Below, piece by piece: positions 35,407 through 58,670 of a DNA stretch of 64,000 nucleotides. Position numbers and translations under genes: made by a program. The stretch comes from an uncultured candidatus Porisulfidus sp. (GTDB taxonomy: Bacteria; Pseudomonadota; Gammaproteobacteria; Poriferisulfidales; Oxydemutatoraceae), in assembly GCA_965215765.1 (NCBI GenBank), contig OZ244118.1:2415801-2479800 (forward strand). Reading direction: 5' to 3'. The notes under the pieces were generated by a model that saw nothing but the letters and a program-made list of their open reading frames with translations, was not told the origin of the DNA and ran no database searches. Position 1 is the first letter of the stretch. Each line of letters starts with the position of its first letter.

Positions 35407-38400
35407 TCAGCGAATCATACCGCCCAGGAATACCCTCAGGCGCAATTTCTTGACGTGATGCGGACCTGGTCTCGGCGTTGTCGGGATCTCGGGATCCCAG
35501 TTGATAAATTGACTCACTCCTGGCAGCTCAGCCACGCTGTCCCGAGGGAATGCCCGGACTTCGTACGCGACACCGCCCTGCAACCCCGTAAATTCCATCC
35601 TGACGGCTCCCCCGGGCGTCGGCATCGCAACAGACTGTTCCTCTATCAGTTCCCCGTATGAAAGCAGTTGTACCCGATACCCCAAGCCGAGCAATATTCC
35701 GTCAACCGGGGCTCCGAAATCAGCATGATCCGCAGTGCGTCCATAGCCATCATTCCCCGAATATTGCAAGTGTACCTGCACACGACCATTCGCCTTGTGC
35801 ATCAGCTGCATGGCCAATGTTCCCTCAAGAACGTCGAGCAAGGTAAATGCTGCTGTGCCCATCGCGCCCGTTCCGGCGCGGTTGACTGCCCGGAGCGAAT
35901 AGCGTATCTGCTCTCCTCCTGCGTGCTTCTTGCGCAGCTGCACCACGACATGGCCTGACAACACATAAGAAGTGGCGGTTCCCGAGACGGGGTGGCTTTT
36001 TCCGTCCACAAAAAGCTGGTAGCTGTCTATCGTCGCCCCGTTGCTGCTCGCCGCTTCCCAACTCAGGTTCACCCGATCTGCGGACTTCCACCTGGCTCGC
36101 AAGCCCGAAGGTCTGCCAGGCACCGCTATGGTGCTGAACGCGCTTCTGTTTTCGGATGCCTGGGCGGGCTCCCCGGTGCCAGCCCGGTTGCGTGCATAGA
36201 CCTGTAACGAATAGCTTCTCTTCGGCAGCAAGTCGGTGATCTCAATCTCGGTGTCAAAAGCACCTGCCGAGAAAAAGGTCTCGGTGCTGCGTCCTCCAGC
36301 ACTCACCACCACCACGTAGCCAAAACCGGAGCCTGCAACGCGATCAGAGGAAGACGCAAGCGCATCACCCGCCAGGGGAGCGCAATCGTCATGTCCCATG
36401 ATCATCAACACCAGGCGCGCAGTGGTTTGCCCGGGCACCAGCTCCGTTATCGTCGTCGCGCCCGGAAGACCGGGCAAATAGAAATGACCGACCGCCGGAT
36501 AGCCAGCGACATCTCCGCGCACAGCGCGAAGACGGTACGGGTGGGGGCAAGCCCCCTGGCTGTTTTTCCGAAACTCAGCCAGAAAATCTCCGTTGAAGTC
36601 AAAAGTCGGTGCTGTGACTTCCCGTATTGTTCCTGCCAGTTCAAGTTCGTACGAATCAACCGCTGGACTTCCCGCCGCCCAAGTAAAGCGCAGATGATCC
36701 GGAGATTCCCAGCTCACCGCCAAATCAACCGGTGCGGCAGGAATGTCGACAAGCGCGCGCAGCAAGGGCAACGTGCGGGTATTGCCAAAATGCCAGGCTC
36801 CCGGTTCCCAGCCGGCATAAGTCGTGGCACCTGCGCATCTTTGCCCCGCCGCAGTCGGGCAACGCAGCTGGGTCAGAGTGCGAGGTAAAGCACCTTCCGT
36901 CAAGCCACTGCCCACCAAAGATGCCTGTGCAGACACGGGTGCGTAACTGCGATCAATCACCGCATCCGGAGCAGAATAACCCGCCAGACTCCCGGTGCTG
37001 CCCGATTCCCCAACAACCCTGTTCGCTGCATAGCTGTCCTGTATGCGGCGGATATTGTTTCCGACCAGTCCCCCGATAGAGAAATGACCCCGCACCTCAC
37101 CGAGTGCATAGCTCGCATGGACAGAACCCGAGTTGATGCCCACCAGTCCGCCAACACGGCTATCTCCGCTGACCGACACGTCGGCATAGCTGTAGGCAAT
37201 GGTGCTTCCGCTGTAGCCGACCAGACCGCCGGCGCGCGAGCCGTCCACAGCGATGGCCGAACCTGTCGCGTAACAGTGCAAAATCGTGCTTCCCTGGCTA
37301 TAGCCAACCAGACCGCCAGCATTGTCCCGCCCTTCACCCGTGACGCGCACCGCCGCATCGGCACTGCTGTGCAAAATAGCGGCTCCCAGAGCCAGACCGG
37401 CCAGACCACCGGCAGACTCAAGCGCGCTTACTTGCGAAGCCCTCACCGTGCTGCCCACGACCCGACCTTTTGCTTTCACATAACCGACCAGACCGCCGAC
37501 GTATCTGCCCCCGCCAACCTCGGCACTGGCACCACTGTTGATCAACAATCCTCCGTTGCCACCCGCCAGCCCGCCAATGTTGAGCCCGGCTCTGTTGCCG
37601 GAAATCTGTGCGGACTTCACAACGCTGTTCATGACGGTTCCGTCGTTAAAGCCGACCAAGGCTCCGACGCTGTTTTTTCCTTTTACCCACGCATCAACGA
37701 GCACCACATCTTTGACGATCCCGTCTATTGCAACTCTGGAAAACAGGCCAACCGTATCCGTCTCCGGGCGGTTAATGTGCAGAGCAGAGATTTGCCGCCC
37801 TGCCCCGTCGAAAGTGCCTGAAAAAGGCTCTATCGGATGAAAACCGGCGCCGCCTGACCACTCCCGACTCGACCGGGCGTCAATATCTGCCACCTGCACA
37901 TAGTGAGCGTGCAGATCAGAGCGCACATCCTGCAGTTGGCACAACGTGCCAATTTGCCACGGGTTGTCGCCGCTGCCGTCACCCTGCGCACTTTTCAGAC
38001 CCTTGCCGGCGCATCCCGGAAAGCGGGTCACCGACCCGGATCGTTGACGGCGATCCGGTGCCCACCGTGTTATGGGCGAAGGCTTCCAGCCGATATGCAA
38101 AGGCACTTTTAAGCTCCGTAAATTCCATTGTGACCGGGCTCAGAGGACTCCCCAGCGGAATGTCGCGTTCTTCAACCAGCTCCCCGGACGCATACAGATG
38201 TATCCGGTAAGCCAGGTGCAAAGCCATGGCTTCCGCTGACGTTGCGTAATCAGCGTCACCCGGTTTGCGACCGTAGCCGTCATTGGCCGGGGCTGTAAAA
38301 CTGAGTCTCAGCGTGGAGACCCCCGGCACCACGTGCATATCAGCCGGAGAACCAGGAACATCCAGCAGGCGCACGGAAACACGGGCAGCTTCGCCAACAC

Positions 38401-41400
38401 CATAAAGGTTGTAGCCACGAACCGTTAAAAAGAGCGTATTCCCGCCTTCATGACGGGCGCGCAGCTTCTGCAACCAGTCCGATCCTCCCACGTAGTACAA
38501 CGATGCGGTTTCCTCAGCAGCGATCGATGGAGCCTCAATCCGGTAAGCGATCAGTTCTTTGGTGTGAAGCGGAGGCTCCCAACGCAGCAACAAGGCAGAC
38601 GGGGATTTCCACTGCGCGAGCAGGCGCAAGGGTTTGCCAGGAGTCTCAAAGCCCTGCAGAACCGGCAGCGTCCTGTAATCTCCGAAGGACCAGATCTCGG
38701 CACTCCAGCCTGAGTATGTTGACCTTCCCGCACACGCCAGGCCGGGGGCGGTGGGACAACGCAGTTGCTGTAGCGTCCGCAAGGAGCCTGATCCCTGCCC
38801 GGCGTCATCTGCCACAAAAGGCATGCCGCCACCATTGGGGCCATTGACGCGAGGCAACGCTGCTGCGTAGCTGTCGGTAATGCCTTCCGAACTGCTGCCG
38901 GCAAAACTTCCGGACTGTCCGGCTCCGGACACCGAGCCTGCCGCATAGCTGCGGCTGACGGTGCCCTGATTGTTTGCCACAAGACCCGCGACCAGACCTT
39001 CCCCGGTCACAAAAGCTGTTGTGTAACTGTCAGTCACCGAGCCCCGGTTGTCTGCGACCAGACCACCCGCCCGAACTGCTCCTGACACCGAGCCTCCGGC
39101 ATAGCTTGTATCAATACTCCCGGTTACCAGATTTCTTCCGACCAGGCCACCCGCTACTTGGCCTCCCGGCTCTGCCGTCAGCTGTGCCGCGCTGCCGCTG
39201 ATCATGCCTGCGTTGATACCGACGAGTCCTCCCGCCACTTGCCCGCCAAAAAGTGAGCCCGTCACCCCGCTGTTCACGATCCTTCCTCCCTCGTTCCTGC
39301 CCGCCAGAGCACCCACGTTGACGCTTCCCCAAAGCTGTGCGTTCACCAGCACGACCTGCTGCAATAACCCGCCCCGAAGCTGCGCAAACATGCCGACATC
39401 TTCCAGCGCCTCAGAGCGCACCCTTAAATGGAAAATCTGATGACCGGCGCCATCAAGGGAACCGGAAAAATCAGCAATCGGCGCAAAGCCTTTTCCGGCT
39501 CGCCAGTCCCGGGATGGACCTGCCTCAATATCGCTTGCCAGCCGGTAGTGGGCTGCAGGAACAGAGCGAATGTCCTGCAATTGGCACAGCGTGGCAATCT
39601 GCCAGGGATTGTCCTCGCTGCCCGAACCGCCTGCCGATGCCAGGGCTTCCCCGTCGCACTGCCAGGGACGGGTAAATGCCGACAGGAAAAATGACGACCC
39701 TTCTCCAACATTGTTATAGGGCGTCGCCTCCACTTCATAGCGGCTATTGCTTGCCAGACCCGAAAATTCCACAACTGCGGATGTTTCGCCAGCTGTGTGC
39801 GCACGCTCCCGCTCCTGCACCAGTTCTCCCCCGGCGTACAACCGTACCCGGTAACCCAAACCTGAAGAAACCCCGACACTCGTATATCCGTAAGCCGGGT
39901 CTTCCGGTGATTGGCCGTAGCCGTCGTCAGCCGGAGCCATAAGAAACACCTGCAGCGAAAATGCCTGCGCCGATGCCCGAACGACCGTCAATTTGCCTGG
40001 GGCTCTCAGCAGTCTGATCACAACCGTCGTCGCTTCGCTCATGCCATGGCGGTTATATCCACGCACGCTGACTTGCAAGGTACTGTCCCTATATTCGGAA
40101 CGGAGGTTTTTCACCAGGTGCCTGCCGAGCGTAAAAGATGCGGATCCCGTTTCCAGGGAACGCCCTGCCACCTCCACCCAATAGCCGGCGTTCAGACTTC
40201 CTGTTTTCGCGGCTGTCCAGTTCAGTTCCAGATCACCTTCCAGGTTCCATCGCGCCTGCAGGCGTGAAGGGGGAGCAGGTGGCACTGCTTGCAGGGCGCG
40301 ATGGGTCGGGAGCGTCTGCTCGTCCCCGAAATACCAGATTTTGGTGCTCCAGCCGGAGTAACTGATTGCTCCCTGGCACGTGTCTCCCGGCAAAAGAGGA
40401 CACTGCAATTGCGCCAGCGTGCGGGAAAAATTGTTTTCTGTGGCGTCCTCTTCCCCGCTGCCCACGAGTTCCAGCGCGCTGCTGCCGACACCCGGCTCCA
40501 AGGCGTAATTCGCAACCATATCGGTGCCCACGGATTGCCCCACCAGCATGCCCGCCTGATTGTTCCCGTTAACCAGACCTGTCGCATAACTGTCCTCAAT
40601 ACTGATGTTTCTGTTGCGGAAGTGACCACTGTTTCCCGCCAGGCCGCCTACCTGCACATTCCCGCTGACCGAACCAGTCGCATAACTGTCGTCAATCGAG
40701 CCTCGACTGGTTCTTCCCACCAGCCCGCCTGCCTGCACATTCCCGCTGACCGCTCCGGTCGCATGGCTTCTGAGGATTGACCCTGAGTTGAGACCCACCA
40801 GACCTCCCACACGGTCCCCCGCGCCGATAACCATGCTGTCCGAGTAGCTGTCAACTATGGAATAGGGATGATCGTGCTGACCCACCAACCCGCCCACATC
40901 CTCTACCCCATTGACCGCTCCTGCCGAATAAGAGCCGCTTATAAAGCCATGGTTATAACCCGCCAGCCCGCCTACATATTGATGCCCGCTTACCGTTGAC
41001 TGCGCGTGGCAGTGGTAGATCGGAGCCACATTGAACCCCACCAGCCCACCAACACTGTTTGCGCCGCTCACACTTCCTCTCGCGTGCGAACTGCGTATCC
41101 TCGCGCCCCAGGCATTCCTGCCCACCAGTCCGCCTATCATGTTGCCGTGCCTCTGGAAATCAACCGTTCCGACAACGGTAGACTCCGAATGGCTGAGCTT
41201 GATTAAGCCATGATTCTCACCTGCCACTCCTCCCACACGATTCCGCCCGCCTATCAACCCAGTCACCGTGCTGCCCTTGATGCTTCCATTTGCCGCAACG
41301 CGTCCTGCCAGGGCTCCTGTTGCATTTCTGCCCCGCACCGTAACATTCACGAGTGCCAGCCTTTGCAGAGCACCACCGTTGAGCTTCCCGAACAGCCCGA

Positions 41401-44400
41401 CATGGTCTGCTTGCCCAGGATTGATCAAAAGACTCAGAATACTGTGACCACTCCCGTCCAGAGAGCCGGAAAAAGATTCAATCGGTGGAAAACCCTTTCC
41501 GTCTCGCCACTCGTGGCTTTGCTTCGCGTCTATATCGTTTGCCACCCGATAATCAGCTGCCGTGTCGTAACGTATTTCATGCAACTGGCAAAGTGTGCCG
41601 ATCTGCCAGGGGTCATCCTCGCTGCCAGAGCCCGCTGCCGTTATCACCGCTGCCCATGGACACGCGCCAACGTAGGTGAAAACCGGTGCTATCACCGTTG
41701 TTGAGCCTGCGCCCGTCTTGTTTCTGGCAAACATCCTGACTTCGTACCTGGAACCACCTTCCAGGCCTGAAAACTCCACTACGGTCGTGCTTGACCATTC
41801 CTGCTGTGTCACACGCCGCACTTCTTTCAACAGGCCTTTTGAAAACAGTTGCACGTGGTATGCGAGATCCAGCGCAACTCCGCCTGCCGGCTCCCCGTAC
41901 ACGTTGCTGCCCGGTGCGCGTCCGTAGCCATCATCAGCGGCTCCGGTAATGGTGACCTGTATTGTTGACAGCCCCGAAGCTGTCTGAGTCCCCACCTCCC
42001 CCGGAACTTTCATCAAATGGAAACTTCCCGACGCTGCATCTCCCGCAACGCCTCCTTTTACGCCGCGTATGGAATAGTGGATTTCACTGCCGCTGACGTA
42101 ATGCTCACGCAATTCAGCCATTAATGAGCCGCCAAGCGCGAAACGGGTTCCCTCGGTGTCTCGAATGATTCCGCCCACCTCCACCTCAAAAGAATTCACG
42201 GCAACTCCTTGATGCCACCCCCACTGCAGCGTCAATCCACCTCTCGAATTCCAGTTTGCACGGACTGCATGCGGGGCAACGGGAACATCCGTAACTGTCC
42301 GGAGCACGGGCAGCATGCGAGAGTTCCCGAAATACCAAATCCTCGTATCCCAACCCAGATACACACCAGCTGCCCGACAAAGATTGACGGGCAACATCGA
42401 GCACTTCATCTGCTCCACGGTGCGCAAATCACTGCCCTGTACTGCACCGTTATCCTCGCCCAGGAGGCTGTCCCCGTCGCCCAGCTTGCTGGCATAACTG
42501 CGGTCTATCGTGCCACCATTGACTCCGACCAGCCTGCCCGGCAAATCAGTTCCGCCTACAGCACCCGTGCTATAGGCACTTCTGACCAAGCCGCTGTTTT
42601 CGCCGACCAGTCCACCTGTCTGACTGTCTCCGGTCACTACGCCTCGTGCGTAACTGTTACCAATGCTTCCCCAGTTTTCGCCGACCAGACCCCCAACCTG
42701 GTTCTTTCCAGTCACACGTGCGTTCACGTTTGTATGGCTGTTCACGATGCTGGCGTTGCCCCCGTTCACACCCACCAGACCACCTGCCTGACTGCCTCCG
42801 GACACCGGGCCTTGTGCGTAGCTGTCACTGATGCTTCCCTTGTTATCGCCGACCAGACCACCTGCCTGACTGCCTCCGGACACCAGGCCTTGTGCGTAGC
42901 TGTCACTGATGCTTCCCTTGTTATCGCCCACCAGACCCCCAACCTGGTTCTTTCCAGTCACACGTACTCGCCCGTTTGTATAGCTATTCACGATCCTGGC
43001 GTTGCCCTCGCTCACACCCACCAGACCACCCACCTGACTGTCTCCGGACACTACGCTTTGCGCGTGGCTGTTGCTGATGCTTCCCCAGTTTTCGCCGACC
43101 AGACCCCCGACCTGGTTCTTTCCACGTACTTGCCCCTTGCTGTGGCTACTCACGATGCTGGCGTTTTTCAGGTTCATACCTACCAGACCGCCTACCTGAC
43201 TGTCTCCGGACACCGTGCTCCACGTGTAGCTGTCACTGATGCTTCCCCAGTTTTCGCCGACCAGACCCCCGACCTTGTTCTTTCCACGTACTTGCCTAAG
43301 TGCATGGCTACTCACGATCCTGGCTTCGTTCACACCCACCAAGCCCCCAATCCCGGGGGCTGCTCCGACAACATAGCTCTCCGTGTAGCTGCCACTGATG
43401 GTGCCGCCAAGGTGCCAACCCACCAGACCACCCACGTAGCCCCTCCCTGAGGCATGAGTCCCGGTCACATCTCCAGTCGCATCGCTGGAAGTGACCGAAC
43501 CCCTGTTTTTGCCCACCAGACCTCCGACTTGATTGCCTCCTGTTACTGCACCCCTCGCATGACTGCCCACAATCGTGCCACCGTCATTCTGACCCACCAG
43601 ACCGCCGGAAACCCATGTGTTGCGAGAATTCTTCCCAACCCTTACCGTCGACGTGCTGTTACGAATGACACCGCCCCGATTCAGGCCAACCAGCCCACCG
43701 ATGGTTTTGCCCCCGTCAACCTTGCCATCAACCATGCTGCCCTCAATCGTCCCCCGATCGTTCAGCCCAACCAGAGAACCGACATTCACTCCGCCGTTCG
43801 TCGAAAAATTCACCAGCTTCACGCGCTTCAGCAAGCCACCCTGCAACTCGCCAAACAACCCTGTGTTCTCGAATTCTCCGGCTGTTGCACTGACCTTCAA
43901 ATTGGAAATTTTGTAACCGTTGCCATCATAGGTGCCAGAAAAACCCTTGATCGGTGCAAAACCGTCTTTCCAGCCATGCGTCATCGTCGTTGCGTCTATA
44001 TCCTTGATCTGGACGTAGTGCGACTGAGGCGATGCTTCCATGTCGCGCAAATGGCACAGGTTTTCTACCTGGTAGGGATCAGTTTCAGTTCCGGAACCTG
44101 CCATGGCCTGCGAACTTATAGCGCACGCCTGATCTGGATCCATGTAGGGAAATTGGCTGCCGTTGTAATAGGTGTCTCCGTAATTGAGAATGTTGAAGGC
44201 TCTTTCGTCCGTGTAAATCCCTCCCATCCCATAATAAAATGAGGTGCAATCCCGACCCTCCTCGCCCGGATGGGCATTTAGAACCCCTATCATCATGCCG
44301 GTCTTTTTATAAAATGCGGATGAGCCGGACGCTCCAAACGTAGGAGAGATGCCCTTATACGTTAAATCCAAAAACCAGCAAATCGCTCCTTCGCAGAAAG

Positions 44401-45664
44401 GCGGGCCGCCTCTCTTACCGCCGACGCTCCCGAGTGAATCGGTCGCTGCCACTGCACTTTCAAACTCACCCAGCTGCTGAGGCTTGGAGCCAGAGTGGTG
44501 TACGGAGAAACCACTGAAAGTATCGGTAGTGCGGGTCATCCACTCCAGCAATTTATAATCTCCGTGCCCGATAAACCGTCCAGTAAGACGCACAATCGCC
44601 CAATCTCCACCCTCATCTCCCGGCACTCTTGCCTTTCCTGCCACGTATCTCACACCAAAGGCGTATGAATCACCAGGAAGACCGATGAAGAATGGCAAAA
44701 ACGGTTTGTCCACAGTGTTAGCGTACGCTTCAGGGAAAAGGTGAAACGCTGTCAGAATGTAGGGGGCTCCATCACCTGACTTGTTCTTTATAAAACTCCC
44801 AGTCCCGCAGCCAGCATCTCCGCCAAAATAGCGGCACATGCTTACGACACCTTTGGTCACATCCCGCACGTAAGCCGGGCTGTCGCTGTTTACATAGTTA
44901 TTGTTACCGGAAACAAATTCGTTGATGTTTGCGCGCTCGCAACTGTCGGCTTGTCTCCGAGGTGCCAGGTTCCTGACTCCCTCTCCGTATAAAACTCCGT
45001 TGTTATCCTTAAATGTGTGGCTCACTTTTTCGACCGAAAAAGGAAAATCGCCTGGCTCCAGGTGGTAACTGTCCGGAACCCAAAACTCTATGACAACGGT
45101 ATCACCAGACACCGGGAACGCCACAAAGCTGCCATCATTACGTGACAAGCCACGTCCCGTGTACTCTACGACCTCTTCATTGCTGTCTCCGGCGAAGGCA
45201 TAGACATTCACCGACATGCCCGGGTCGAGGGGAAACCCAGAAAAATGCAACCACAGCTGCAGGGCAGACGGAGAGCGAATCTGCGCCTGCCAGACATCAA
45301 GACCGTCTTCCTGTTTGACCAGTGCCCAGTTGGAACGCCTTAAATGGACGTCCCGGGCAAAGCTGGTGTAGTTGATCGTTGTCTCACGGAGCAGTTCACG
45401 AATTTGCTCTTGTTCCCGGGTACTGAAAGGCCCCAAGTCCAGTTGCTGTGCGCGGGCAGGATACAGAGTTCGAGTGGCTTCCCGGGCATTCCTCCCCTCC
45501 GAAAAGGGATAGGACGCATAGCCTTGATCTGCCAGAGATTCCTGATCCTGGCCGAAAACAAGAGAGCTCGACGTGATGATAGATACACCCACGAACAGCC
45601 ACTTCAGCCAACCATGGCTGCCGGAAATCTGCGTATCCGAAAATCTGAAACCTGCTTCTTTCAT
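35407..45664 (-). pseudogene. Giant GLUG/S1-protease paralog 2 (about 3,419 codons), interrupted by a +1 frameshift near 38044-38048 (ORF 37979..45664 of 2561 aa, then ORF 35407..38106 of 899 aa). Could be an authentic pseudogene, or a sequencing/assembly error in a repeat.
   Basis: The two ORFs overlap by 128 nt. Paralog 1 has 'gggtcaccgtccggatcg' where paralog 2 has 'gggtcaccgacccggatcg'. The protein is collinear with paralog 1 on both sides of the break ('...STIR' | 'VTRFPGCAGKGLKSAQGDG'). Confidence 0.65.
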
Positions 45665-47305
45665 TGTGAGTGCTTACGAGCCATGCGGGCAGAGAAAAGA
45701 GAGCCTGGCCATCCTGAGACATAAAATTCCCTGCACCACATTCGCTATCTGTTCTTCATGGCTACGCACTGAGCGATCCTCTGGCTCTGACCTTCACTCA
45801 CTCTCTGATGTCCCAGTACGGCTGTACGCGGTCAGGATACAGAGTTCGAGTGGCTTCCCGGGCATTCCTCCCCTCCGAAAAGGGATAGGACGCATAGCCT
45901 TGTTCTGCCAGAGACTCCTGATCCTGGCCGAAAACGAGTGAGCTTGACGTGATGATGGTTACACCCACGAGTAGCCACTTCCGCCAACCATGGCTGCCGG
46001 AAATCTGTGTATCCGGAAATCTGAAATCTGCTTTTTTCATTGTGAATGCCTACGAGCCATGCAGGCGGAGAAAAGAGAGCCTGACCACCCTGAGACATAA
46101 AATTCCCTGCACCACATTCGCTATCTGTTCTCCATGGCTGACGCACTGAGCGATCCTCTGGCTCTGACCTTCACTCACTCTCTGATGTCCCAGCACGGCT
46201 GTACGCAGGCAGGATACAGAGTTCGAGTGACTTCCCGGGCATTCCTCCCCTCAAAAAAGGGATGGGACGCGAAGCCTTGTTCTGCCAGAGATTCCTGATC
46301 TTGGCCGACAGCAAACGCGCTTGACGTGATGATGGTTACACCCACGAGCAGCCACTTCAGCCAACCATGGCTGCCGGAAATCTGCGCGTCCGGAAATCTG
46401 AAACCTGCTTCCTTCATTGTGAATGCCTACGAGCCATGCGGGCGGAGAAAAGAGAGCCTGACCACCCTGAGACATAAAATTCCCTGCACCACATTCGCTA
46501 TCTGTTCTCCATGGCTGACGCACTGAGCGATCCTCTGGCTCTGACCTTCACTCACTCTCTGATGTCCCAGCACGGCTGTACGCAGGCAGGATACAGAGTT
46601 CGAGTGGCTTCCGGAACATTCCCCCCCTCAAAAAAGGGATGGGACGCGAAGCCTTGTTCTGCCAGAGATTCCTGATCCTGGCCGAAAACGAGTGAGCTTG
46701 ACGTGACGATGGATACACCCACGAGTAGCCACTTCCGCCAACCATGGCTGCCGGAAATCTGTGTATCCGGAAATCTGAAATCTGCTTTTTTCATTGTGAA
46801 TGCCTACGAGCCATGCAGGCGGAGAAAAGAGAGCCTGACCACCCTGAGACATAAAATTCCCTGCACCACATTCGCTATCTGTTCTCCATGGCTGACGCAC
46901 TGAGCGATCCTCTGGCTCTGACCTTCACTCACTCTCTGATGTCCCAGCACGGCTGTACGCAGGCAGGATACAGAGTTCGAGTGACTTCCCGGGCATTCCT
47001 CCCCTCAAAAAAGGGATGGGACGCGAAGCCTTGTTCTGCCAGAGATTCCTGATCCTGGCCGAAAATGAGTGAGCTTGACGTGATGATGGATACACCCACG
47101 AGTAGCCACTTCCGCCAACCATGGCTGCCGGAAATCTGTGTATCCGGAAATCTGAAATCTGCTTTTTTCATTGTGAATGCCTACGAGCCATGCAGGCGGA
47201 GAAAAGAGAGCCTGACCACCCTGAGACATAAAATTCCTTGCACCACATTCGCTATCTGTTCTCCATGGCTGACGCACTGAGCGATCCTCTGGCTCTGACC
47301 TTCAC
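45665..47305 (-). repeat. 4.3 tandem copies of a 377-bp unit that duplicates the giant-gene 5' leader (about 150 bp) plus start codon and first ~68 codons. Each copy ends in an 80-aa signal-peptide ORF (MKKADFRFPDTQISGSHGW...).
   Basis: Start codons of the leader-ORFs at 46040, 46417, 46794 and 47171 (period 377). Breakpoint just after codons '...RTLYPA'. Confidence 0.9.
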
Positions 47306-47719
47306 TCACTCTCTGATGTCCCAGCACGGCTGTACGCGCCGAAAAATCACTAGTGGGTCAATTGTACAAAATAACGCCCATTTCAGCAAATTATTATAAG
47401 AAGATACCGGCCTCATCCGACCGGAAAACCCCGAAAACAGTACCAAGGTGTGCAGTCTTATTTGTGAGCTTTTTGGTCTCCAAGGGGGTGAATCAGTGGC
47501 AATAGTCGGCACTGCAACTTCCTGTTTTTAACCACGAAAAACGTGAAAGTTGGTATTTGCAATTCGTATGATTTCAGTTTTGTGACAGCTTCCAAAGTTC
47601 ACCAAAAGCCCCAATTCAAGGCCTGTTGTTTTAAGACAATTCAACAGTTGTGCTTCATGCTCATCAACAATGTTTGTCATGGCAGATATAGTCAGGCTTA
47701 TGGACTTGCTTTAAAGGTT

Positions 47720-48421
47720 CACCCTCTGTGCCTTAAAAGAAGTGCTCCTTATGGGAAACTCCTTCTCCGGACACTCCTGATCCACTGCCTCAAGAAAACC
47801 ACACCTTCATCAGAAAACAAAACCCTTTCGTTTTTTCGGGCTATTAAACTCGTGGTTCATGGTTTCTCTCCAGTTGCCCGGGCTCTTCATCAAAGGAATG
47901 CTCCTTATGGAAAACTCCTTCTCCAGACACTCCTGATGCACTGCCTCAAGGAAAATACACCTCACTTCCCTGAACCGCATGGCATTCATCAGAAAACAAA
48001 ACCTTTTCGCATTTTAGCGGTTATTAAACTCGTGGTTCATAGCTCTCTCGCCAGCTGCCCGGGCTCTTCACCAAAGGAATGCTCGTTATGGAAAACTCCT
48101 TCTCCGGACACTCCTGATGCACTGCCTCAAGGAAACCACACCTCATTTCCCTGAATCGCATGGCATTCATCAGGAAATAAAATTTTTCGTATATTTCGCG
48201 GTTATTAAACTCATGGTTCATAGCTCTCTCGCCAGTTACCCGGGCTCTTCACCAAAGGAATGATCCTTATGGAAAACTCCTTCTCCGGACACTCCTGATG
48301 CACTGCCTCTTAGAAACTCCTTCTCCAAACACTCCTGGCACACTGCCTCAAGTAAGCCACACATTCATCAGAAAACAAAACCTTTTCGCGTTTTTCGCGG
48401 TTGTTAAATTCGTGTATGCCC
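47720..48421. repeat. Downstream repeat family, about 181-bp unit (about 4-5 copies), abutting the stop codon of paralog 3
   Basis: '(t/c)tattaaactc(g/a)tggttcat' at 47842, 48022, 48202 and 48402. 'ttatgg(g)aaaactcc' at 47749, 47905, 48086 and 48267. Confidence 0.85.
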
Positions 48422-51400
48422 TCAGCGAATCATGCCGCCCAGGAATACCCTCAGGCGCAATTTCTTGACGTGATGCGGACCTGGTCTCGGCGTTGTCGGA
48501 ATCTCGGGATCCCAGTTGATAAATTGACTCACTCCTGGCAGCTCAGCCACGCTGTCCCGGGGGAATGCCCGGACTTCGTACGCGACACCGCCCTGCAACC
48601 CCGTAAACTCCGTCCTGACGGCTCCCCCGGGCGTCGGCATCGCAACAGACTGTTCCTCTATCAGTTCCCCGTATGAAATCAGTTGTACCCGATACCCCAA
48701 GCCGAGCAATATTCCGTCAACCGGGGCTCCGAAATCAGCATGATCCGCAGTGCGTCCGTAGCCATCATTTCCCGAATATTGCAAGTGTACCTGCACACGA
48801 CCATTCGCCTTGTGCATCAGCTGCATGGCCAATGTTCCCTCAAGAACGTCGAGCAAGGTAAATGCTGCAGTGCTCATCGCGCCCGTTCCGGCACGGTTGA
48901 CTGCCCGGAGCGAATAGCGTATCTGCTCTCCTCCTGCGTGCTTCTTGCGCAGCTGCGCCAAGGCATGGCTTGACAACACATAAGAAGCGGCGGTTCCTGC
49001 GACGGGGTGGCTTTTTCCGTCCACAAAAAGTTGGTAGCTGTCTATCGTCGCCCCGTTGCTGCTCGCCGCTTCCCAACTCAGGTTCACCCGATCTGCGGAC
49101 TTCCACCTGGCTCGCAAGCCCGAAGGTCTGCCAGGCACCGCTATGGTGCTGAACGCGCTCCTGTTTTCGGATGCCTGGGCGGGCTCCCCGGCACCCGCCC
49201 GGTTGCGCGCATAGACCTGTAACGAATAGCTTCTCTTCGGCAGCAAGTCGGTGATCTCAATCTCGGTGTCAAAAGCACCTGCCGAGAAAAAGGTCTCGGT
49301 GCTGCGTCCTGCAGCACTCACAACCACCACATAGCCAAAACCGGAGCCTGCAACGCGGTCAGGGGAAGTCGCAAGCGCATCACCCGCCAGGGGAGCGCAA
49401 TCGTCATGTCCCATGATCATCAACACCAGGCGCGCAGTGGTTTGGCCGGGCACCAGCTCCGTTATCGTCGTCGCGCCCGGAAGACCGGGCAAATAGAAAT
49501 GACCGACTGCCGGATAGCCAGCGACATCTCCGCGCACAGCGCGAAGACGGTACGGGTGGGGGCAAGCCCCCTGTCTGTTTTTCCGAAACCCGGCCAGAAA
49601 ATCACCGTTGAAATCAAAAGTCGGTGCTGTGACTTCCCGTATTGTTCCTGCCAGCTCAAGTTCGTAGGAATCAACCGCTGGACTTCCCGCCGCCCAAGTA
49701 AAGCGCAGATGATCCGAAGATTCCCAGCTCACCGCCAAATCAACCGGTGTGGCAGGAATGTCGGCAAGCGCGCGCAGCAAGGGCAACGTGCGGGTATTGC
49801 CAAAATGCCAGGCTCCCGGTTCCCAGCCGGCATAAGTCGTGGCACCTGCGCATCTCTGCCCCGCCGCAGTCGGGCAACGCAGCTGGGTTAAAGTTCGAGG
49901 TGAACTGCTGCCCGTCGAGCCATTGCCCACCAAAGCTGCCTGTGCAGACACGGGTGCGTAACTGCGATCAATCACCGCATCCGGAGCAGAATAACCTGCC
50001 AGACTCCCGGTGCTGCCCGACTCCCCAACAACCCTGTTCACCGCATAGCTGTCCTGAATGCGGCGGATATTGCTTCCGACCAACCCCCCGGTGATGGAGC
50101 GACCCCATACCTCACCGAGTGCATAGCTCGCATGGACAGAACCGGAGTTGATGCCCGCCAGTCCGCCAACACGGCTATCTCCGCTGACCGACACGTCGGC
50201 ATAGCTATAGGCAATGGTGCTTCCGCTGTAGCCGACCAGACCGCCGGCGCGCGAGCCGTCCACAGCAATGGCCGAACCTGTCGCGTAACAGTGCAAAATC
50301 GTGCTTTCCTGGCTATAGCCAACCAGACCGCCAGCATTGTCCCGCCCTTCACCCGAGACGCGCACCGCCGCTTCGGCACTGCTGTACAAAATAGCGGCTC
50401 CCAGAGCCAGACCTGCCAGACCACCGGCAGACTCAAGCGCGCTTACTTGCGAAGCCCTCACCGTGCTGCCCACAACCCGACCTTTTGCTTTCACATAACC
50501 GACCAGACCGCCGACGTACCTGCCCCCGTCAACCTCGGCACTGGCACCACTGCTGATCAGCAACCCTCCGTTGCCACCCGCCAGCCCGCCAATGTTGGCT
50601 CCAGCTCTGTTGCCGGAAACCTGTGCAGATCTCACGACGCTGTTCATGACCGTTCCGTCGTTAAAGCCGACCAGGGCACCGACACTGTTTTTTCCTTTTA
50701 CCCACGCATCAACGAGCACCACCCCTTTGGCGATTCCGTCTTCTGCAAGCCTGGAAAACAGGCCAACCGTATCCGTTTCCGGGCGGTTAATGTACAGAGC
50801 AGAGATTTGCCGCCTTGCCCCGTCGAAAGTGCCTGAAAAAGGCTCTATCGGATGAAAGCCGGCACCGCCTGACCACTCCTGACTCGGGCTGGCGTCAATG
50901 TCTGCCACCTGCACATAGTGAGCGTACAGATCAGAGCGCACATCCTGCAGTTGGCACAGCGTACCAATTTGCCACGGGTTGTCGCCGCTGCCGTCACCCG
51001 ATGTACCCTTCAGGCCTTTGCCGGCGCATTCCGGAAAACGGGTCACCGTCCGGAACGTTGAAGGCGATCCGGTACCCACTGTGTTATGGGCGAAGGCTTC
51101 CAGCCGATATGCAAAGGCACTTTTGAGCCCCGCAAATTCCACCGTGACCGGGTTCAGAGGACTCCCCGGCGGAATGTCGCGTTCTTCAACCAGCTCCCCG
51201 GTCGCATACAGACGTATCCGGTAAGCCAGGTGCAAATCCATGGCTTCCGCTGACGCTGCGTAATCAGCGTCAACCGGCCTGCGGCCATAGCCATCATTGG
51301 CAGGGGCTGTAAAGCTGAGTCTCAGCGTGGAGACCCCCGGCACCACGCGCATATCAGCCGGAGAATCAGGAACATCCAGCAGGCGCACGGAAACACGGGC

Positions 51401-54400
51401 AGCTTCGCCAACACCATAAAGGTTGTAGCCGCGAACCGTTAAAAAGAGCGTATTCCCGCCTTCATGACGGGCGCGCAGCTTCTGCAACCAGTCCGATCCT
51501 CCCGCGTAGTACAACGATGCGGTTTCCTCAGCAGCGAGCGACAGAGCCTCAATCCGGTAAGCGATCAGTTCTCTGGTGTGAAGCGGAGGCTCCCAACGCA
51601 GCAACAAGGAAGACGGGGATTTCCACTGTGCCAGCAGGCGCAAGGGTTTGCCAGGAGTCTCAAAGCCCCGCAGAACCGGCAGCGTCCTGTAATCGCCAAA
51701 GGACCAGGTCTCGGCACTCCAGCCTGAGTATGTTGACCTTCCCGCACACGCCAGGCCGGGGGCAGTGGGGCAACGCAGTTGCTGCAGCGTCCGCAAGAAG
51801 CCTGATCCCTGCCCTGCGTCATCTGCCACAAAAGGCATGCCGCCACCATTGGCGCCATTGCCGCGAGGCAACGCTGCCGCATAGCTGTCGGCAATGCCTC
51901 CCGAACTGCTGCCGGCAAAACTTCCAGGCTGTCCGGCTCCGGATACCGACCCTGCCGCGTAGCTGCGACTGACGGTGCCCTGATTGTCCGCCACAAGACC
52001 CGCGACCAGACCTTCCCCGGTCACAAAAGCTGTTGTGTAACTGTCAGTCACCGAGCCCCGGTTGTCTGCGACCAGACCACCCGCCCGAACTGCTCCTGAC
52101 ACCGAGCCTCCGGCATAGCTTGTATCAATACTCCCGGTTACCAGATTTCTTCCGACCAGGCCACCCGCTACTTGGCCTCCCGGCTCTGCCGTCAGCTGTG
52201 CCGCGCTGCCGCTGATCATGCCTGCGTTGATACCGACGAGTCCTCCCGCCACTTGCCCGCCAAAAAGTGAGCCCGTTGCGCCGCTGTTCACGATCCTTCC
52301 TCCCTCGTTCCTGCCCGCCAGGGCTCCCACGTTGACGCTTCCCCAAAGCTGCGCGTTCACCAGCACGACCTGCTGCAACAGACCGCCCTGAAGCTGCGCA
52401 AACATGCCGACATCTTCCAGTCGTCTCAGAGCGCACCCTTAAATGGAAAATCTGATAACCGGCACCATCAAAGGAACCGGAAAAATCAGCAATCGGCGCA
52501 AAGCCTTCTCCGGCTCGCCAGTCCCGGGATGGACCTGCCTCAATATCGCTTGCCAGCCGGTAGTGGGCTACAGGAACAGAGCGAATGTCCTGCAATTGGC
52601 ACAGCGTGGCAATCTGCCAGGGATCGTCCTCGCTGCCCGAGCCGCCCGAACCGCCTGCCGACATCAGGGCTTCCCCGTCGCACTGCCAGGGACGGGTAAA
52701 TGCCGACAGGGAAAATGACGACCCTTCTCCAACATTGTTATAGGGTGTTGCCTCCACTTCATAGCGACTATTGCTTGCCAGACCCGAAAATTCCACAACT
52801 GCAGATGTTTCGCCGGCTGTGTGCGCACGCTCCCGCTCCTGCACCAGTTCTCCCCCGGCGTACAACCGTACCCGGTAGCCCAGACCTGCGGAAACCCCGA
52901 CACTCGTATATCCGTAAGCCGGGTCTTCCGGTGATTGGCCGTAGCCGTCGTCAGCCGGAGCCAGAAGCAACACCTGCAGCGAAAATGCCTGCGCCGATGC
53001 CCGAAGGTCTGTCAATTCGCCTGGGGCTCTCAGCAGCCTGATCGCAACCGTTGTCGCTTCACTCATGCCATGACGGTTATATCCACGTACGCTGACTTGC
53101 AAGGTACTGCCCCTATATTCGGAACGGAGGTTTTGCACCAGGCGCCTGCCGAACGTAAAAGATGCGGACTCCGTTTCCAGGGAACGCCCTGCCACCTCCA
53201 CCCAATAGCCGGCATTCAGGCTTCCTGTTTTTGCAACTGTCCAGCTCAGTTCCAGATCACCTTCCAGGTTCCATTTCGCCTGCAGGCGCGAAGGGGGAGC
53301 AGGTGGCACTGCTCGCAGGGCGCGATGAACCGGAAGCGTCTGCTCGTCCCCGAAATACCAGATTTTGGTGCTCCACCCGGAGTAGCTGACTGCTCCCTGG
53401 CACGTGTCTCCCGGCAAAAGGGGACACTGCAGTTGCGCCAGCGTACGGGAAAAGTTGTTTTCTGTGGCATCCTCTTCCCCGCTGCCCACGAGTTCCAGCG
53501 CACTGCTGCCGACACCCTGCTCCAAGGCGTAATTCTCAGCCATATCGGTGTTTTCGGAATGTCCCACCAGCATGCCCGCCTGATTATTCCCGTTAACCAG
53601 ACCAGCCGCATAACTGTTCACAATCCTGATGTTGTTGTCGGTGCTGCGCTCACTGTTTCCCGCCAGCCCGCCTATCTGCGCTTTCCCGCTCACCGAACCG
53701 GTCGCATAACTGTCGACAATCGAGCTGTTCCTGCTTTCTCCCGCCAAGCCGCCCACCTGCTCATTTCCGCTGACCGCTCCGGTCGCATGGCTCCTGATGA
53801 TTGACCCTGAGCTGAGGCCCACCAGACCTCCCACACGATTCCCCGCGCTGGTAACCGTGCTGTCCGAGTGGCTGTCAACTATGGAACTGGAATTGTGGTT
53901 ACCCGCCAGCCCGCCCACATCTTCTACCCCGCTGACCGCTCCCGTCGAATAAGAGCCGCTTATAAAGCCATAGTTGGAACCTGCCAGCCCGCCCACAGAA
54001 TGATGCCCGCTCACCGTTGACTGCACATGGCTGTGATAGATCGGAGCCTGATTGAGCCCTACCAGTCCACCAACATTGTTTGTGCCGCTCACACCTCCTC
54101 TCGCGTGCGAACTGCGTATCCTCGCACCCGGGAAGTTTTTGCCCACAAGTCCGCCTATTGCGTGGCCGTGCCCCTGGGAATCAGTTGTTCCGGCAACGGT
54201 GGACTCCGAATGGCTGAGCTTGATCAAGCCATGATTCTCACCTGCCACTCCTCCCACACGTCTCCGACCGCCTATCAGCCCCGTCACCGTGCTGCCCTTG
54301 ATGCTTCCATTTGCCGCAACACTTCCTGCCAGGGCTCCTGTTGCATCTCTGCCCCGCACCGTGACATTTACCAGAGCCAGCCTTTGCAGGGCACCACCGC

Positions 54401-57400
54401 TGAGCTTCCCGAACAGCCCGACATGATCCGTTTGCCCAGGATTGATCAAAAGACTCAGAATGCTGTGACCACTCCCGTCCAGAGAACCGGAAAAAAATTC
54501 AATCGGTGAGAAGCCCTTTCCGTCCCGCCACTCGTGGCTTTGCTTCGCGTCTATGTCGTTTGCCAGCCGATAATGCGCTGCCGTGTCGTAACGTATTTCC
54601 TGCAACTGGCAAAGTGAGCCAATCTGCCAGGGGTCATCCTCACTGCCAGAACCTGCTGCTGTTATCATCGCTGCCCATGGACACGCCTCAACGTAGGTGA
54701 AAACCGGTGCTACCTCCGTTGGGCCTGCGCCCGCCTTGTTTTCGGCAAACACCCTGACTTCGTACCTGGAACCACCTTCCAGACCTGAAAATTCCACTAC
54801 GGTCGAACTTGACCATTCCTGCTGTGTCATGCGCCGCTCTTCTTTCAACAGGCCTTTTGAGAACAGTTGCACGTGGTATGCGAGATCCGGGGCAACTCCA
54901 CCTGCCGGTTCCCCGTATGCGCTGCTGCCCGGTGCACGTCCGTAGCCATCAGCAGCAGCCTCGGTAATGGTGACCTGTATTGTTGACAGCCCCGAAGCTG
55001 TCTGAGTCCCCACCTCCCCCGGAACTTTCATCAAATGGAAACTTCCCGACGCTGCATCTCCCGCAACGCCTCGTGCTACGCCGCGTATGGAATAGTGGAT
55101 TTCACTGCCGCTGGCGTAACGCTCACGCAATTCAGCCATCAATGAGCCGCCAAGCGCGAAATGGAATACCTTGGTGTCTCGAATGATTCCGCCCACCTCA
55201 AGCTCGTAGAAATTCACGGCAACTCCTTGATGCTCCCACTGCAGCGTCAATCCACCCGTCGAATCCCGGCTTTCCCGGACTGCATGCGGGGCAACGGGAA
55301 CATCCGTAACTGTCCGGAGCACGGGCAGTACACGAGAGTTCCCGAAATGCCAAATTCGCGTATCCCAACCCAGATACACGCCAGCTGCCCGGCAAAGATT
55401 GACGGGCAATATTGAACACTTCATCTGCTCCACGGTGCGCAAATCACTGCCCTGTACTGCACCGTTATCCTCGCCCACAAGGCTGTCCCCGTCCCCCCCC
55501 TTGCTGGCATAGCTGCGGGCTATCGTGCCACTGTTGACTCCGACCAGCCTGCCCGGCAAATCAGTTCCGCCTACAGCACCAGTGCTATAGGCACTTCTGA
55601 CCGTACCGCTGTTTTCGCCGACCAGCCCACCTGTCTGACTGTCTCCGGTCACTGCGCCTCGTGCATAACTGTTACCAATGCTTCCTTTGTTATCGCCGAC
55701 CAGACCGCCGACTTGATCCTTCCCGCTCACACGTACTTCCTGGCGTGTATGGCTATTCACAATCCTGGCGTTGTCCCCGTTCACACCCACCAGACCACCT
55801 GTCTGACTGTCTCCGATCACTGCGCCTTGTGCGTAGCTGTCACTGACGCTTCCTTTGTTATCGCCGACCAGACCACCTGTCTGACTGTCTCCGATCACTG
55901 CGCCTTGTGCGTAGCTGTCACTGATGCTTCCTTTGTTTTCGCCGACCAGACCGCCGACTTGATCCTTCCCGCTCACACGTACTTCCTGGCGTGTATGGCT
56001 ATTCACGATATTGGCGTTGCTTTCGTTCACACCCACCAGACCACCCACCTGACTGTCTCCGGACACTGAGCCTCTTCGTGCGTAGTTGTTGCTGATGCTT
56101 CCTGCGTTTCTGCCGACCAGACCCCCAACCTGGTTCTTTCCAGTCACACGTGCATTCCCGCCTGTATGGCTATTCACGATCCTGGCGTTGCCCTCACTCA
56201 CACCCACCAGACCGCCCACCTGGCTGTCTCCGGACACCGTAGAAAACCCGATGCTGTTGCTGATGCTTCCTCTGTTTTCGCCGACCAGACCCCCGACCTT
56301 GTTCTTTCCACGTACTTCCTTGTATGCACGGCCATACACGATGCCGGCTTCGTTCACACCCACCAAGCCCCCAATCCCGGGGGCTGCTCCGACAACCTTG
56401 CTATTCGTGTGGCTGTAACTGATGGTGCCGCCAAGGTGCCAACCCACCAGACCACCCACGTAGCCCACTTCGGTGCTAGCCCCGGTCACATCTCCAGTCG
56501 CATCGCTGGAAGTAACCGAACCCCTGTTTTTGCCCACCAGACCTCCGACTTGATTGCCTCCTGTTACTGCCCCCCTCGCATGACTGCCCACAATCGTGCC
56601 ACCGTCATTCTGACCCACCAGCCCGCCGGCAACCCATGTGACGCTAGAGTTCTCCCCAACCCTTACCGTCGCCGTGCTGTTGCGAATGACACCGCCCTGA
56701 TTCAGGCCAACCAGCCCACCGATGGTTCTGTACCCGTCAACCTTGCCATCAACCTCGCTGTCCTCAATCGTCCCTTGATTGTTCAGCCCAACCAGAGAAC
56801 CGACATTCACTCCGCCTTCCGTCAAAAAACCCACCAGCTTCACACGCTTCAGCAAGCCACCCTGCAGCTCGCCAAACAGCCCTATATTCTTGAATGCTTC
56901 GTCTGCTACGTTGATCTTCAAAGTGGAAATTTGGTAACCGTTGCCATCGTAAGTGCCAGAAAAATCCTTGATCGGTGTAAAACCGTTTTTCCAGCCATGC
57001 GTCATCGTCGATGCGTCTATATCTTTGATCTGGATGTAGTGCGACTGGGGCGATGTTTCCATGTCGCGCAAATGGCATGCGTTTTCTACTTGGTAGGGAT
57101 CAGTTTCAGTTCCGGAACCCGCCATGGCCTGCGAATTTATAGCGCACGCCTGATCTGGATCCATGTAGGGAAATTGGCTGCCATTGTAATAGGTGTCTCC
57201 GTAATTGAGAATGTTGAAGGCTCTTTCGTTCGCGTAAATCCCTCCCATCCCGTAATACCATGAGGTGCATTCCCGACCCTTTCCCGGATTGGCATTCAGA
57301 ACCCCTATCATCATGTCGGTTTCTTTATAAAACGCGGATGAACCGGACGCTCCATACGTAGGAGAGATGCCCTTATACGTTAAATCCAAAAACCCGCAAA

Positions 57401-58670
57401 TCGCTCCTTCGCAGAAAGGCGGGTCGCCTCTCTTGCCGCCGACGTGGTAGAGTGAGCCGTCATTCGTTGCCACTGCACTTTCAAACTCATTCCACTGCTG
57501 AGGCTTGGAGCCGGAGTGGTGTACGGAGTAACCACTGAAAGTGTTGCTGGTGCGGGTCATCCACCCCAGCAATTTATAATTTCCGTGTCCGATAAACGAC
57601 CCGGTAAGACGTATAATCGCCCAATCACCACCCTCGTCTCCCGGCTCTCTTGCCTTTCCTGCCACGTATCTCGCGCCAAAGGCAAGGGAATTGCCAAGAA
57701 GACCGATGAAGCGCGGCAAAAACGGTTTGTCCACAGCGTCAGCGTCCACTTCAGTGAAAAGGTGAAACGCTGTCAGAATGTAGGGGGCTCCATCACCTGA
57801 CTTGTTCTTTATAAAACTCCCAGTCGCGCAGGCAAGTGGGCGGCAGATGCTTACGACACCTTTGGATCCATTCTGCACGTAAGCCGGGCTGTCGCCGTCT
57901 ACATAGGTATTGTTATCGTAAAAAGGATCGATGCTTGCGCGCTCGCAACTGCCGGCTTGTCTCCGAGGCACCAGGTTCCTGACTCCCTCTCCGTATAAAA
58001 CTCCGTTGTTATCCTTGAATGTGTGGCTCACTTTTTCGACCGAAAAAGGAAAATCGCCTGGCTCCAGGTGGTAACTGTCCGGAACCCAAAACTCTATGAC
58101 AACGGTGTCACCAGACACCGGGAACGCCACAAAGCTGCCATCATTACGTGACAAGCCGCGGCCCGTGTACTCTACGAGCTCTTCATTGCTGTCTCCGGCG
58201 GGGGCATAGACATTCACCGACATGCCCGGGTCAAGGGGAAAACCAGAAAAATATAACCACAGCCGCAGGGCAGACGGAGAGCGAATCTGCGCCTGCCAGA
58301 CATCAAGGCCGTCTTCCTGTTTGACCAACGCCCAGTTGGAACGCCTTAACCGGACGTCCCGGGCAATGCTGGTGTAGTTGACCGTTGTCGCACGAAGCAG
58401 TACACGAATTTGCTCCTGTTCCCGGGTGCTGAAAGATCCCAAGTTCAGTTGCTGTGCGCTGGCAGGATACAGAGTTCGAGTGGCTTCCCGGGCATTCCTC
58501 CCCTCCGAAAAGGGATGGGACGTGAAGCCTTGATCTGTCGGAGATTCCTGATCCTGACCGAAAACGAGTGAGCTTGACGTGATGATGGACACACCCACGA
58601 GCAACCATTTCAGCCAACCATGGTTACCGGAAATCTGCGCATCCGGAAATCTGAAACCTGCTTCTTTCAT
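48422..58670 (-). pseudogene. Giant GLUG/S1-protease paralog 3 (about 3,416 codons), interrupted by a +1 frameshift near 52421-52426 (ORF 52125..58670 of 2181 aa, then ORF 48422..52405 of 1327 aa)
   Basis: Paralogs 1 and 2 read 'ttccagc(a/g)cctcag', paralog 3 reads 'ttccagtcgtctcag' (one extra base). The protein switches from '...GYQIFHLRVRSE' to out-of-frame text. The downstream ORF resumes at 'MFAQLQGGLLQQVVLVNAQLWG', collinear with the paralogs. Confidence 0.65.

Follow-up and report, generated by a model that had tools for sequence, protein, structure and literature searches.

Tandem copies of a gene's own leader and start codon upstream of a giant GLUG/fn3 gene in a candidatus Porisulfidus sp.: probable products of microhomology-mediated duplication

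A stretch of 64,000 nucleotides of contig OZ244118.1 (assembly GCA_965215765.1, positions 2,415,801 to 2,479,800; hereafter the window), from an uncultured candidatus Porisulfidus sp., encodes three giant paralogous genes, two of which (paralogs 2 and 3) are preceded by a tandem array of 377-bp copies of their own beginning. These arrays raise the question of why a gene should be preceded by several copies of its own leader, start codon and first codons. A first-pass annotation of the array at paralog 2, made from the letters of the sequence, knew of no described system with this layout and proposed that the copies could act as translational decoys or attenuators, as an array of potential start sites, as homology tracts for recombination or as genes for small secreted peptides. 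The analysis reported here indicates that the array probably arose by microhomology-mediated tandem duplication followed by amplification and has since been tolerated, an account that would serve for all arrays alike, and no function of the cassettes' own is supported by the findings.

Alignment of twelve units showed that each unit comprises approximately 165 nt of leader, the ATG and approximately 70 codons of the giant secreted GLUG/fn3 protein, and both this alignment and Tandem Repeats Finder (TRF) describe the array as direct head-to-tail repeats in which the unit is a copy of the leader and first ~70 codons of the adjacent gene. At paralog 2 (45445..47337), TRF reports a period of 377, 5.0 copies, 94% matches and 0% indels; this figure includes the unit of the real gene, and the 4.3 copies counted in the first-pass annotation correspond to the four extra cassettes. 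There are five extra cassettes at paralog 3 and none at paralog 1, in agreement with the earlier count of a single leader at paralog 1 and 4-5 copies at the other two. Indeed, the start context CACAATGAA recurs on the minus strand (i) in the four cassettes of paralog 2 (47171, 46794, 46417 and 46040) and at its real start (45664), (ii) in the five cassettes of paralog 3 (60553, 60176, 59799, 59424 and 59047) and at its real start (58670), and (iii) once, at 34910, in paralog 1. Differences between units are substitutions, with pairwise identities of 88-100% and a unit divergence of 3-11%.

In the extra units, the reading frame enters leader sequence and then meets a stop codon (RTLYPA-CVQ-PCWDIRE, stop). 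All four cassettes of paralog 2 are intact 80-aa open reading frames (ORFs), as are four of the five of paralog 3, the fifth (ATG at 59799) having a 1-nt deletion and an altered 81-aa product; eight of the nine cassettes of the window are thus open at 80 aa, to which four of four in a second strain, described below, can be added. The anatomy first proposed, namely a repeated 5' untranslated region (UTR) with start codon and first codons, therefore stands, since the unit corresponds approximately to the whole 5' UTR, the ATG and ~70 codons. Some details have to be amended: RTLYPA does precede the junction, but the break is located at codons 70-73, within a microhomology, instead of after ~68 codons; and the 80-aa ORF with its signal peptide and ~40 residues was recovered, but its tail is not of 12 aa, the part derived purely from the leader being 7 aa (PCWDIRE), or 10 aa with the hybrid junction.

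The edges of the array are informative about its origin. A microhomology of 9 of 10 nt, CGCG(Y)ACAGC, i.e. CGCG(T/C)ACAGC, is found at both edges and at all junctions, as CGCGTACAGC in the leader and as CGCGCACAGC in the real gene. All internal junctions read CCTGCC-[T/C]GCG[T/C]ACAGC-CGT(G/A)CTGG and are hybrids of the gene site (CGCGCACAGC followed by AACTGG) and the leader site (CGCGTACAGC followed by CGTGCTGG). In the closest genome in the species collection, a Candidatus Oxydemutatoraceae metagenome-assembled genome (OZ243039.1) with six homologous genes, both sites occur at the corresponding positions, 377 bp apart, of the single-copy homologue L001, and this arrangement is the ancestral, unduplicated state. 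The array is derived, or lineage-specific, because none of the six homologous genes of OZ243039.1 (0/6) has a 5' array. Judging from these sequences, the junction bears the signature of a microhomology-mediated tandem duplication (MTD), which is a known process.

Table 1. Coordinates of the arrays, giant genes, predicted signals and neighbouring features in the window
Feature	Coordinates	Strand	Description
Paralog 2 array	45445..47338	-	377-bp units, four extra cassettes and the real gene's own unit; TRF, unit alignment, L012
Upstream microhomology site	47329..47338	-	CGCGTACAGC, 5' edge of the array; present in single-copy L001
Downstream microhomology site	45445..45454	-	CGCGCACAGC, codons 71-74 of the real gene, 3' edge of the array; present in single-copy L001
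Cassette 1 ORF	46929..47171	-	80 aa; signal-peptide-like N-terminus, ~40 residues, leader-encoded tail, stop; identical in L012
Cassette 2 ORF	46552..46794	-	80 aa; identical to paralog 3 cassette 2; exact protein match on ERZ25071281 ctg41326
Cassette 3 ORF	46175..46417	-	80 aa; clustered private substitutions (SSAFAVGQ)
Cassette 4 ORF	45798..46040	-	80 aa; diverges strongly from its L012 counterpart (conversion patch)
Paralog 3 array	58451..60720	-	377-bp units, five extra cassettes and the real unit; TRF period 377, 6.0 copies
Candidate sigma-70 promoter, paralog 2	47361..47389	-	TTGCTG-17 nt-TACAAT, upstream of unit 1, outside the repeat; predicted
Promoter-like element, paralog 1	35100..35128	-	Same promoter
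Promoter-like element, paralog 3	60744..60772	-	Same promoter-like element
Terminator-like hairpin	47407..47424	-	Just upstream of the promoter; also upstream of paralog 1
Paralog 1	24414..35128 (ORF 24414..34910)	-	Intact 3498-aa gene, single leader
Paralog 2 N-terminal ORF	37979..45664	-	2561 aa; signal-peptide-like start, trypsin-fold-like domain, GLUG repeats, fn3
Paralog 2 C-terminal ORF	35407..38106	-	899 aa
Paralog 3 N-terminal ORF	52125..58670	-	2181 aa
Paralog 3 C-terminal ORF	48422..52405	-	Follows a 1-nt insertion at ~52421
tlpA/resA-like array	314..908	-	149 bp x4; 3' end of the gene (856..1440) and downstream DNA
gmhB array	7527..8926	+	464 bp x3; 3' two-thirds of gmhB and downstream DNA
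thiS-thiG array	14474..15330	-	214 bp x4; last 32 thiS codons, spacer and first ~28 thiG codons
140-173-bp array	16773-17387		Between thiO and a T2SSE ATPase gene
181-bp arrays	47806-48349; 61188-61901		Upstream of giant-gene promoters
Secretin cluster	17427-23754	-	Secretin, two T2SSE-type ATPases, PilN-domain protein; directly downstream of paralog 1
Short GLUG-like ORF	9012-9194	+	Isolated, just after the gmhB array
50-aa fragment	47528-47680	-	Between the 181-bp array and the promoter

The array was also recovered independently. Contig ERZ25071281 ctg41326_43x_l (L012), an independent long-read contig of 43x that is collinear with positions 54956..38032 of the window at 98.1% identity, contains the same 377-bp array (x5.0) with four open 80-aa cassette ORFs; the array of paralog 2 is therefore real and is not an assembly artefact. 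Its copy number is 5.0 in both strains compared (two strains only). Units 1 and 2 are identical between the two strains, unit 3 has six differences and units 4 and 5 are more divergent; identity falls to 91-96% in a patch that runs through units 3-5 and ~500 nt into the gene, with units 1-2 at 100%. The whole alignment of window positions 38032-54956 with L012 is patchy in this way, 100% identical stretches alternating with stretches at 91-96%, which suggests that frequent gene conversion among the giant-gene paralogs is behind the patchy strain differences.

The relative age of the array can be deduced from the paralogs. Paralogs 2 and 3 share 91.9% identity over 11,955 nt, array included, and the array therefore predates the duplication of paralogs 2 and 3. 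Units 1-2 of the paralog 2 array are 98-100% identical to those of the paralog 3 array, against 92% for the gene bodies, and later conversion between the two arrays must thus have occurred.

The following sequence of events would explain these features. Illegitimate recombination or template switching would have joined the two copies of CGCG(T/C)ACAGC, 377 bp apart, the first of them in the transcribed leader, at ~16 nt, and the second at codons 71-74; the leader and the start codon would in this way have been duplicated together with ~70 codons. Homologous unequal exchange or slippage would then have enlarged the duplication to 4-5 extra units, and the array would have been copied together with the gene at the origin of paralogs 2 and 3 and later reshuffled by gene conversion. 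It could be tolerated because one intact gene copy remains: a duplication spanning a gene end would leave this copy beside its own ribosome-binding region, and such arrays would persist in a lineage where these events are frequent and seldom purged. The surviving duplications would be solely those that leave each neighbour gene intact, i.e. those that span a gene end or are intergenic, and the adhesin cassettes would be the 5'-end form of a general duplication process. We infer both the mechanism of the expansion and the lack of a fitness effect.

Other loci of the window and of related genomes present the same design. Eight tandem arrays are present in the window, with periods of 140-464 bp and 2-6 copies, totalling 8,888 bp (13.9%); all eight straddle gene ends or are intergenic, and the number of genes interrupted is zero. 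In the thiS-thiG array, intact thiS and thiG are found at the two ends and the internal fusion ORFs end at the junction. The junctions of the other arrays are unrelated to that of the 377-bp array, namely AATCTG(R)CAG for gmhB (microhomology of 9/10), GAAG for thiS-thiG and an AGGG-like sequence for the tlpA-like gene, and each unit comes from its own flanking genes, whether in the 377-bp, thiS-thiG, gmhB and tlpA-like arrays or in that of a closed 2.0-Mb relative (L011, ThiG 88% identical). In the syntenic region of L011, the window's arrays are not present. This region carries its own array at 2082-3309 (244 bp x5), in which the 3' end of a T2SSE ATPase gene is joined to the 5' end of the pilM/N-like gene that follows, yielding fusion ORFs. 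The layout that had been taken for an undescribed special system is thus found again at thiS-thiG, at gmhB, at the tlpA-like gene and at the T2SSE/pilN-like junction of a relative.

Copy numbers at two of these loci can be compared with L010, a contig of the same species from ERZ25071281 that is 98-99% identical. The thiS-thiG array, within the thiamine-biosynthesis operon, is polymorphic, with 4.0 copies in the window vs 3.0 in L010 (9441-10083). The 140-173-bp array located between thiO and the T2SSE ATPase gene includes an 11-bp microsatellite (GCTCGGAGCCA) and extends over ~0.6 kb in the window vs ~1.6 kb in L010 (6490-8100).

A second junction exists in the giant-gene family itself. Among the ERZ25071281 homologues, a 305-bp unit made of 37 nt of leader and 89 codons is repeated x4.9 in L009 and x1.9 in L008, the L008 cassette being derived from a different paralog type. 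In L009 (274-1776), the TGA stop codon of a 102-aa cassette ORF shares bases with the ATG that follows (ATGA), and the ORFs are linked in this manner up to the real gene; these chained minigenes are potentially translationally coupled.

Short-junction duplications are known in bacteria, and MTDs have been described in yeast (bioRxiv 10.1101/2020.03.03.972455). The arrays resemble such duplications and their amplification in that the copies are local and head-to-tail, the breakpoints fall within a short, imperfect direct repeat that was present before duplication, related genomes differ in copy number and sister species lack the array. They differ in being old (3-11% unit divergence), in having several copies instead of two and in occupying ~14% of the region, which is unusually much for a bacterial chromosome. 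The mycobacterial interspersed repetitive units used as variable number tandem repeats (MIRU-VNTR) of Mycobacterium also come to mind; as far as the description in PMC3184786, after Supply et al. 1997, extends, they are variable tandem units located between the genes of polycistrons and co-transcribed with them, and they contain small ORFs with ends overlapping neighbour genes, to which the ATGA-chained cassettes of L009 can be compared. In the same description, MIRUs are a dispersed, possibly MITE-like family of 40-100 bp, unlike the units studied here, which are of 140-464 bp, are local copies of gene ends and are unrelated between loci. A MIRU-like dispersed family does not fit, the units at different loci being non-homologous and each derived from its own flanking genes.

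Several observations weigh against simple tolerance and leave a functional reading open. First, the arrays are old: this one has been kept through ~8% sequence divergence, and its copy number at paralog 2 is equal in two 98.1%-identical strains. Such persistence exceeds the usual survival of tandem repeats in recombination-proficient bacteria. Long persistence and equal copy number could indicate selection for maintenance. Second, all cassettes in the two copies of the paralog 2 array (8/8) keep an open 80-aa frame, which is weak evidence because only ~1 stop is expected by chance. Third, nucleotide diversity is lower in the leader part (pi 0.045) than in the coding part (pi 0.072). Finally, that a single gene family has two independent junctions might point to a preferred position; this is, however, not a clear enrichment, because about one fifth of the gene junctions of the window carry an array.

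The expression signals around the array have to be considered before its possible functions. A candidate sigma-70 promoter was predicted upstream of unit 1; its counterpart in L001, TTGCCA-17-TATAAT, is near-consensus. The corresponding element, TTGC(C/T)(G/A)-17-TA(C/T)AAT, is present upstream of all three giant genes and is conserved, together with a leader of ~190 nt, between species and even between paralogs that share no more than 45% identity in their N-terminal domains. Farther upstream, each of these promoters is preceded by an array of 181-bp repeats (the third at ~35200-35400, the others in Table 1), which is conserved in related contigs (L007 6875-7488; L012 6647-7150). No promoter was detected inside the unit by a standard scan or by a relaxed scan (at least 8/12, gene strand, 47450 to 45600); the relaxed scan returned a single site of at least 8/12 with a recognisable -35, besides an overlapping, 1-nt-shifted match to the same TACAAT. 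The array is thus located between the predicted promoter and the real start codon. Since the sole recognisable promoter is upstream of unit 1, transcription would run through the cassettes and lengthen the 5' UTR by 1.5-1.9 kb; each cassette would offer the start context of the real gene, and each would be translated into an 80-aa product with a signal-peptide-like beginning and no purpose. The array of start sites proposed at first exists in the literal sense, but these starts cannot give a full-length protein because each runs into a stop.

Regulation by the leader itself was considered in several forms. A structured leader RNA or riboswitch, which could have accounted for the conservation of the leader, was ruled out, as the leader fold does not differ significantly from shuffled sequence (z-score -0.89), RNAalifold on nine leaders gave a covariation term of ~0 and an Rfam search of the leader gave no match at the gathering threshold. 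Leader-peptide attenuation with alternative terminator and antiterminator finds no counterpart either: a scan for terminator-like sites inside the array found none, and there is neither the fold nor the covariation. An upstream ORF in the leader is not conserved, its ATG being ACG in L001, L004 and L005. The untranslated spacer between cassettes (134 nt, with 42 G and 30 C) has a composition that seems unlike a C-rich, G-poor Rho loading site.

The most plausible functional alternative, although an unlikely one, is a tuning of expression, suggested by analogy with the heptanucleotide repeats in the 5' UTR of hmw1A and hmw2A of Haemophilus influenzae (PMC12721329, PMC2424069). The units, lying between the sole promoter and the start, would lengthen the 5' UTR and add translated decoy ORFs, so that the output of surface protein would fall or change with copy number, and unequal exchange would generate heritable, reversible variants. 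As in hmw1A/hmw2A, a gene for a large secreted adhesin has a repeat tract between its promoter, here predicted, and its start codon, and the number of repeats differs between paralogous loci (0, 4 and 5 extra units here); HMW1A expression was found to be inversely proportional to the length of the transcribed 5' UTR repeat tract (PMC12721329). Moreover, giant secreted adhesin- or protease-like proteins belong to a class often under contingency control, and a second array type (305 bp) occupies the same position in the family. However, the unit is of 377 bp vs 7 bp, the hmw unit contains no start codon or ORF, and it is for hmw that rapid slippage with its effect on expression was shown experimentally. 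Furthermore, the copy number of paralog 2 is identical in the two strains compared, the 3-11% divergence between units is unlike a rapidly cycling contingency locus, paralog 2 is frameshifted in both strains, and the housekeeping thiS-thiG junction has a like array, which is the one that varies between strains. It is improbable, if conceivable, that the array is a large-unit contingency device in the giant surface-protein genes of sponge symbionts, setting the level of each adhesin paralog, in a lineage that uses or tolerates junction-straddling amplification to retune expression.

Still more doubtful is the hypothesis that the arrays serve as a recombination substrate, i.e. as long stretches of homology through which the tandem paralogs would swap gene bodies or 5' ends, with diversified surface proteins as the outcome. 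The near-identity of units 1-2 between the paralog 2 and 3 arrays, compared with the gene bodies, the strain patch covering units 3-5 and the first ~500 nt beside fully identical units 1-2, and the L008 cassette derived from another paralog type would all be in line with it. However, the same mosaic extends all along the genes, at a distance from the arrays; the paralogs are ~90% identical over 10 kb and offer ample homology without arrays; the cassettes encode the conserved signal-peptide-like end and not variable exposed parts; and such a role is impossible for the thiG and gmhB arrays. The recombination tracts of the first-pass annotation can thus be retained as a consequence of the arrays, with the reservation that the rest of the genes is equally patchy.

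In silent-cassette systems such as pilS/pilE, vls and msp2, the cassettes lack start signals and carry variable exposed segments. The arrays share with them the presence of partial gene copies beside a surface-protein gene and gene conversion among the copies, but differ in the content of the cassettes, namely a start codon flanked by the promoter-distal leader and by the conserved signal-peptide-like end. Silent-cassette antigenic variation was rejected on this basis, the cassettes holding a start codon and residues 1-70, which are nearly invariant in nine homologues.

A role of the 80-aa ORFs as functional small secreted peptides or as decoys of the Sec pathway is highly improbable. The cassettes do keep the real start context and a signal-peptide-like N-terminus, eight of nine in the window and all four in L012 are open, and the 102-aa ORFs of L009 are chained by ATGA stop-start overlaps. 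On the other side, the tail is arbitrary leader sequence that differs between the 377-bp and 305-bp types, one cassette tail is frameshifted, the 80-aa ORF had no match among the family models searched, and the substitution pattern is close to neutral. Indeed, the cassette-private variants comprise 10 synonymous and 17 nonsynonymous changes and no stop, for a random expectation of 23% synonymous changes and 3.7% stops, and the variable coding sites are distributed 16:12:22 across codon positions. These numbers, from a small sample, are compatible with neutral or nearly neutral evolution of the cassettes; the pooled ratio of nonsynonymous to synonymous polymorphism (pN/pS = 0.48) is uninterpretable alone because functional paralogs can donate variants. 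Exact look-ups of a paralog-3 cassette and of DsbD found neither on record.

Lastly, the expansion of a single leader by mis-assembly, which the first-pass annotation had named as the finding that would overturn its reading, retains a negligible probability, given that the substitutions among units form a pattern common to two arrays and that the 43x long-read contig L012 reproduces the array unit for unit.

The giant genes and their surroundings were also characterized. Paralog 1 is intact, and in paralog 2 a +1-nt frameshift at ~38042 (GATCCGGGTCGG vs GATCCGGACGG in paralog 1) divides the gene into two ORFs, the extra base being present in L012 as well; the frameshift of paralog 3 at ~52421 is absent from L012 and may be erroneous or specific to this strain. 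A link between the arrays and pseudogenisation is accordingly upheld in part and weakly, the paralog 2 frameshift being found in L012 and the paralog 3 frameshift not. Pfam searches of the giant proteins identified Glug, fn3 and, by a weak match to the M26 N-terminal model, Peptidase_M26_N. The first ~500 residues had no match among Pfam and NCBIfam models; a profile search gave a weak match to the lysyl endopeptidase 4nsy (E 0.009), and H308, D354 and S446 (His, Asp, GxSGS) are invariant in this region. Residues 1-70 are the most conserved part of the protein across the nine homologues, and the N-terminus looks like a Sec signal peptide. Scans of JGI metagenomes with a 36-nt unit pattern and with an N-terminal-domain profile gave no match.

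The other genes of the window are chromosomal and include dsbD, pntB, gmhB, sulP, a trmB-like gene, thiG, thiS, thiO and a secretin/ATPase/PilN cluster. This cluster, which is syntenic in L010 and L011, could serve the neighbouring giant proteins as their dedicated export or pilus system. The short ORF found after the gmhB array, probably a fragment left as a relic, encodes a GLUG-like peptide (…GLVAGLVANNQG…) similar to the C-terminal portion of the giant proteins. A 50-aa fragment resembling the C-terminus of GxxExxY/PDDEXK_3-type proteins was also detected, with a counterpart in L008 (6197-6349) that has a weak match to PF13366.

In summary, the array taken alone is an ordinary product of tandem duplication and a new example of a known event, and its annotation as a novel regulatory system or as a set of small secreted peptide genes would be unwarranted. 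Its background is unusually rich in such events and may be the part that merits notice: about one fifth of the gene junctions of the window carry an old multi-copy array with units of 140-464 bp, and relatives have other arrays at other junctions. A literature search on tandem arrays and on GLUG proteins in sponge symbionts found nothing relevant. The lineage is related to the Oxydemutatoraceae sponge symbionts, Oxydemutator having been described as a symbiont of sponges (PMC11685487). In this lineage, the arrays inflate gene counts through truncated ORFs, provide ready-made strain markers of the VNTR type and mark a recombination or repair regime that deserves study in complete genomes.

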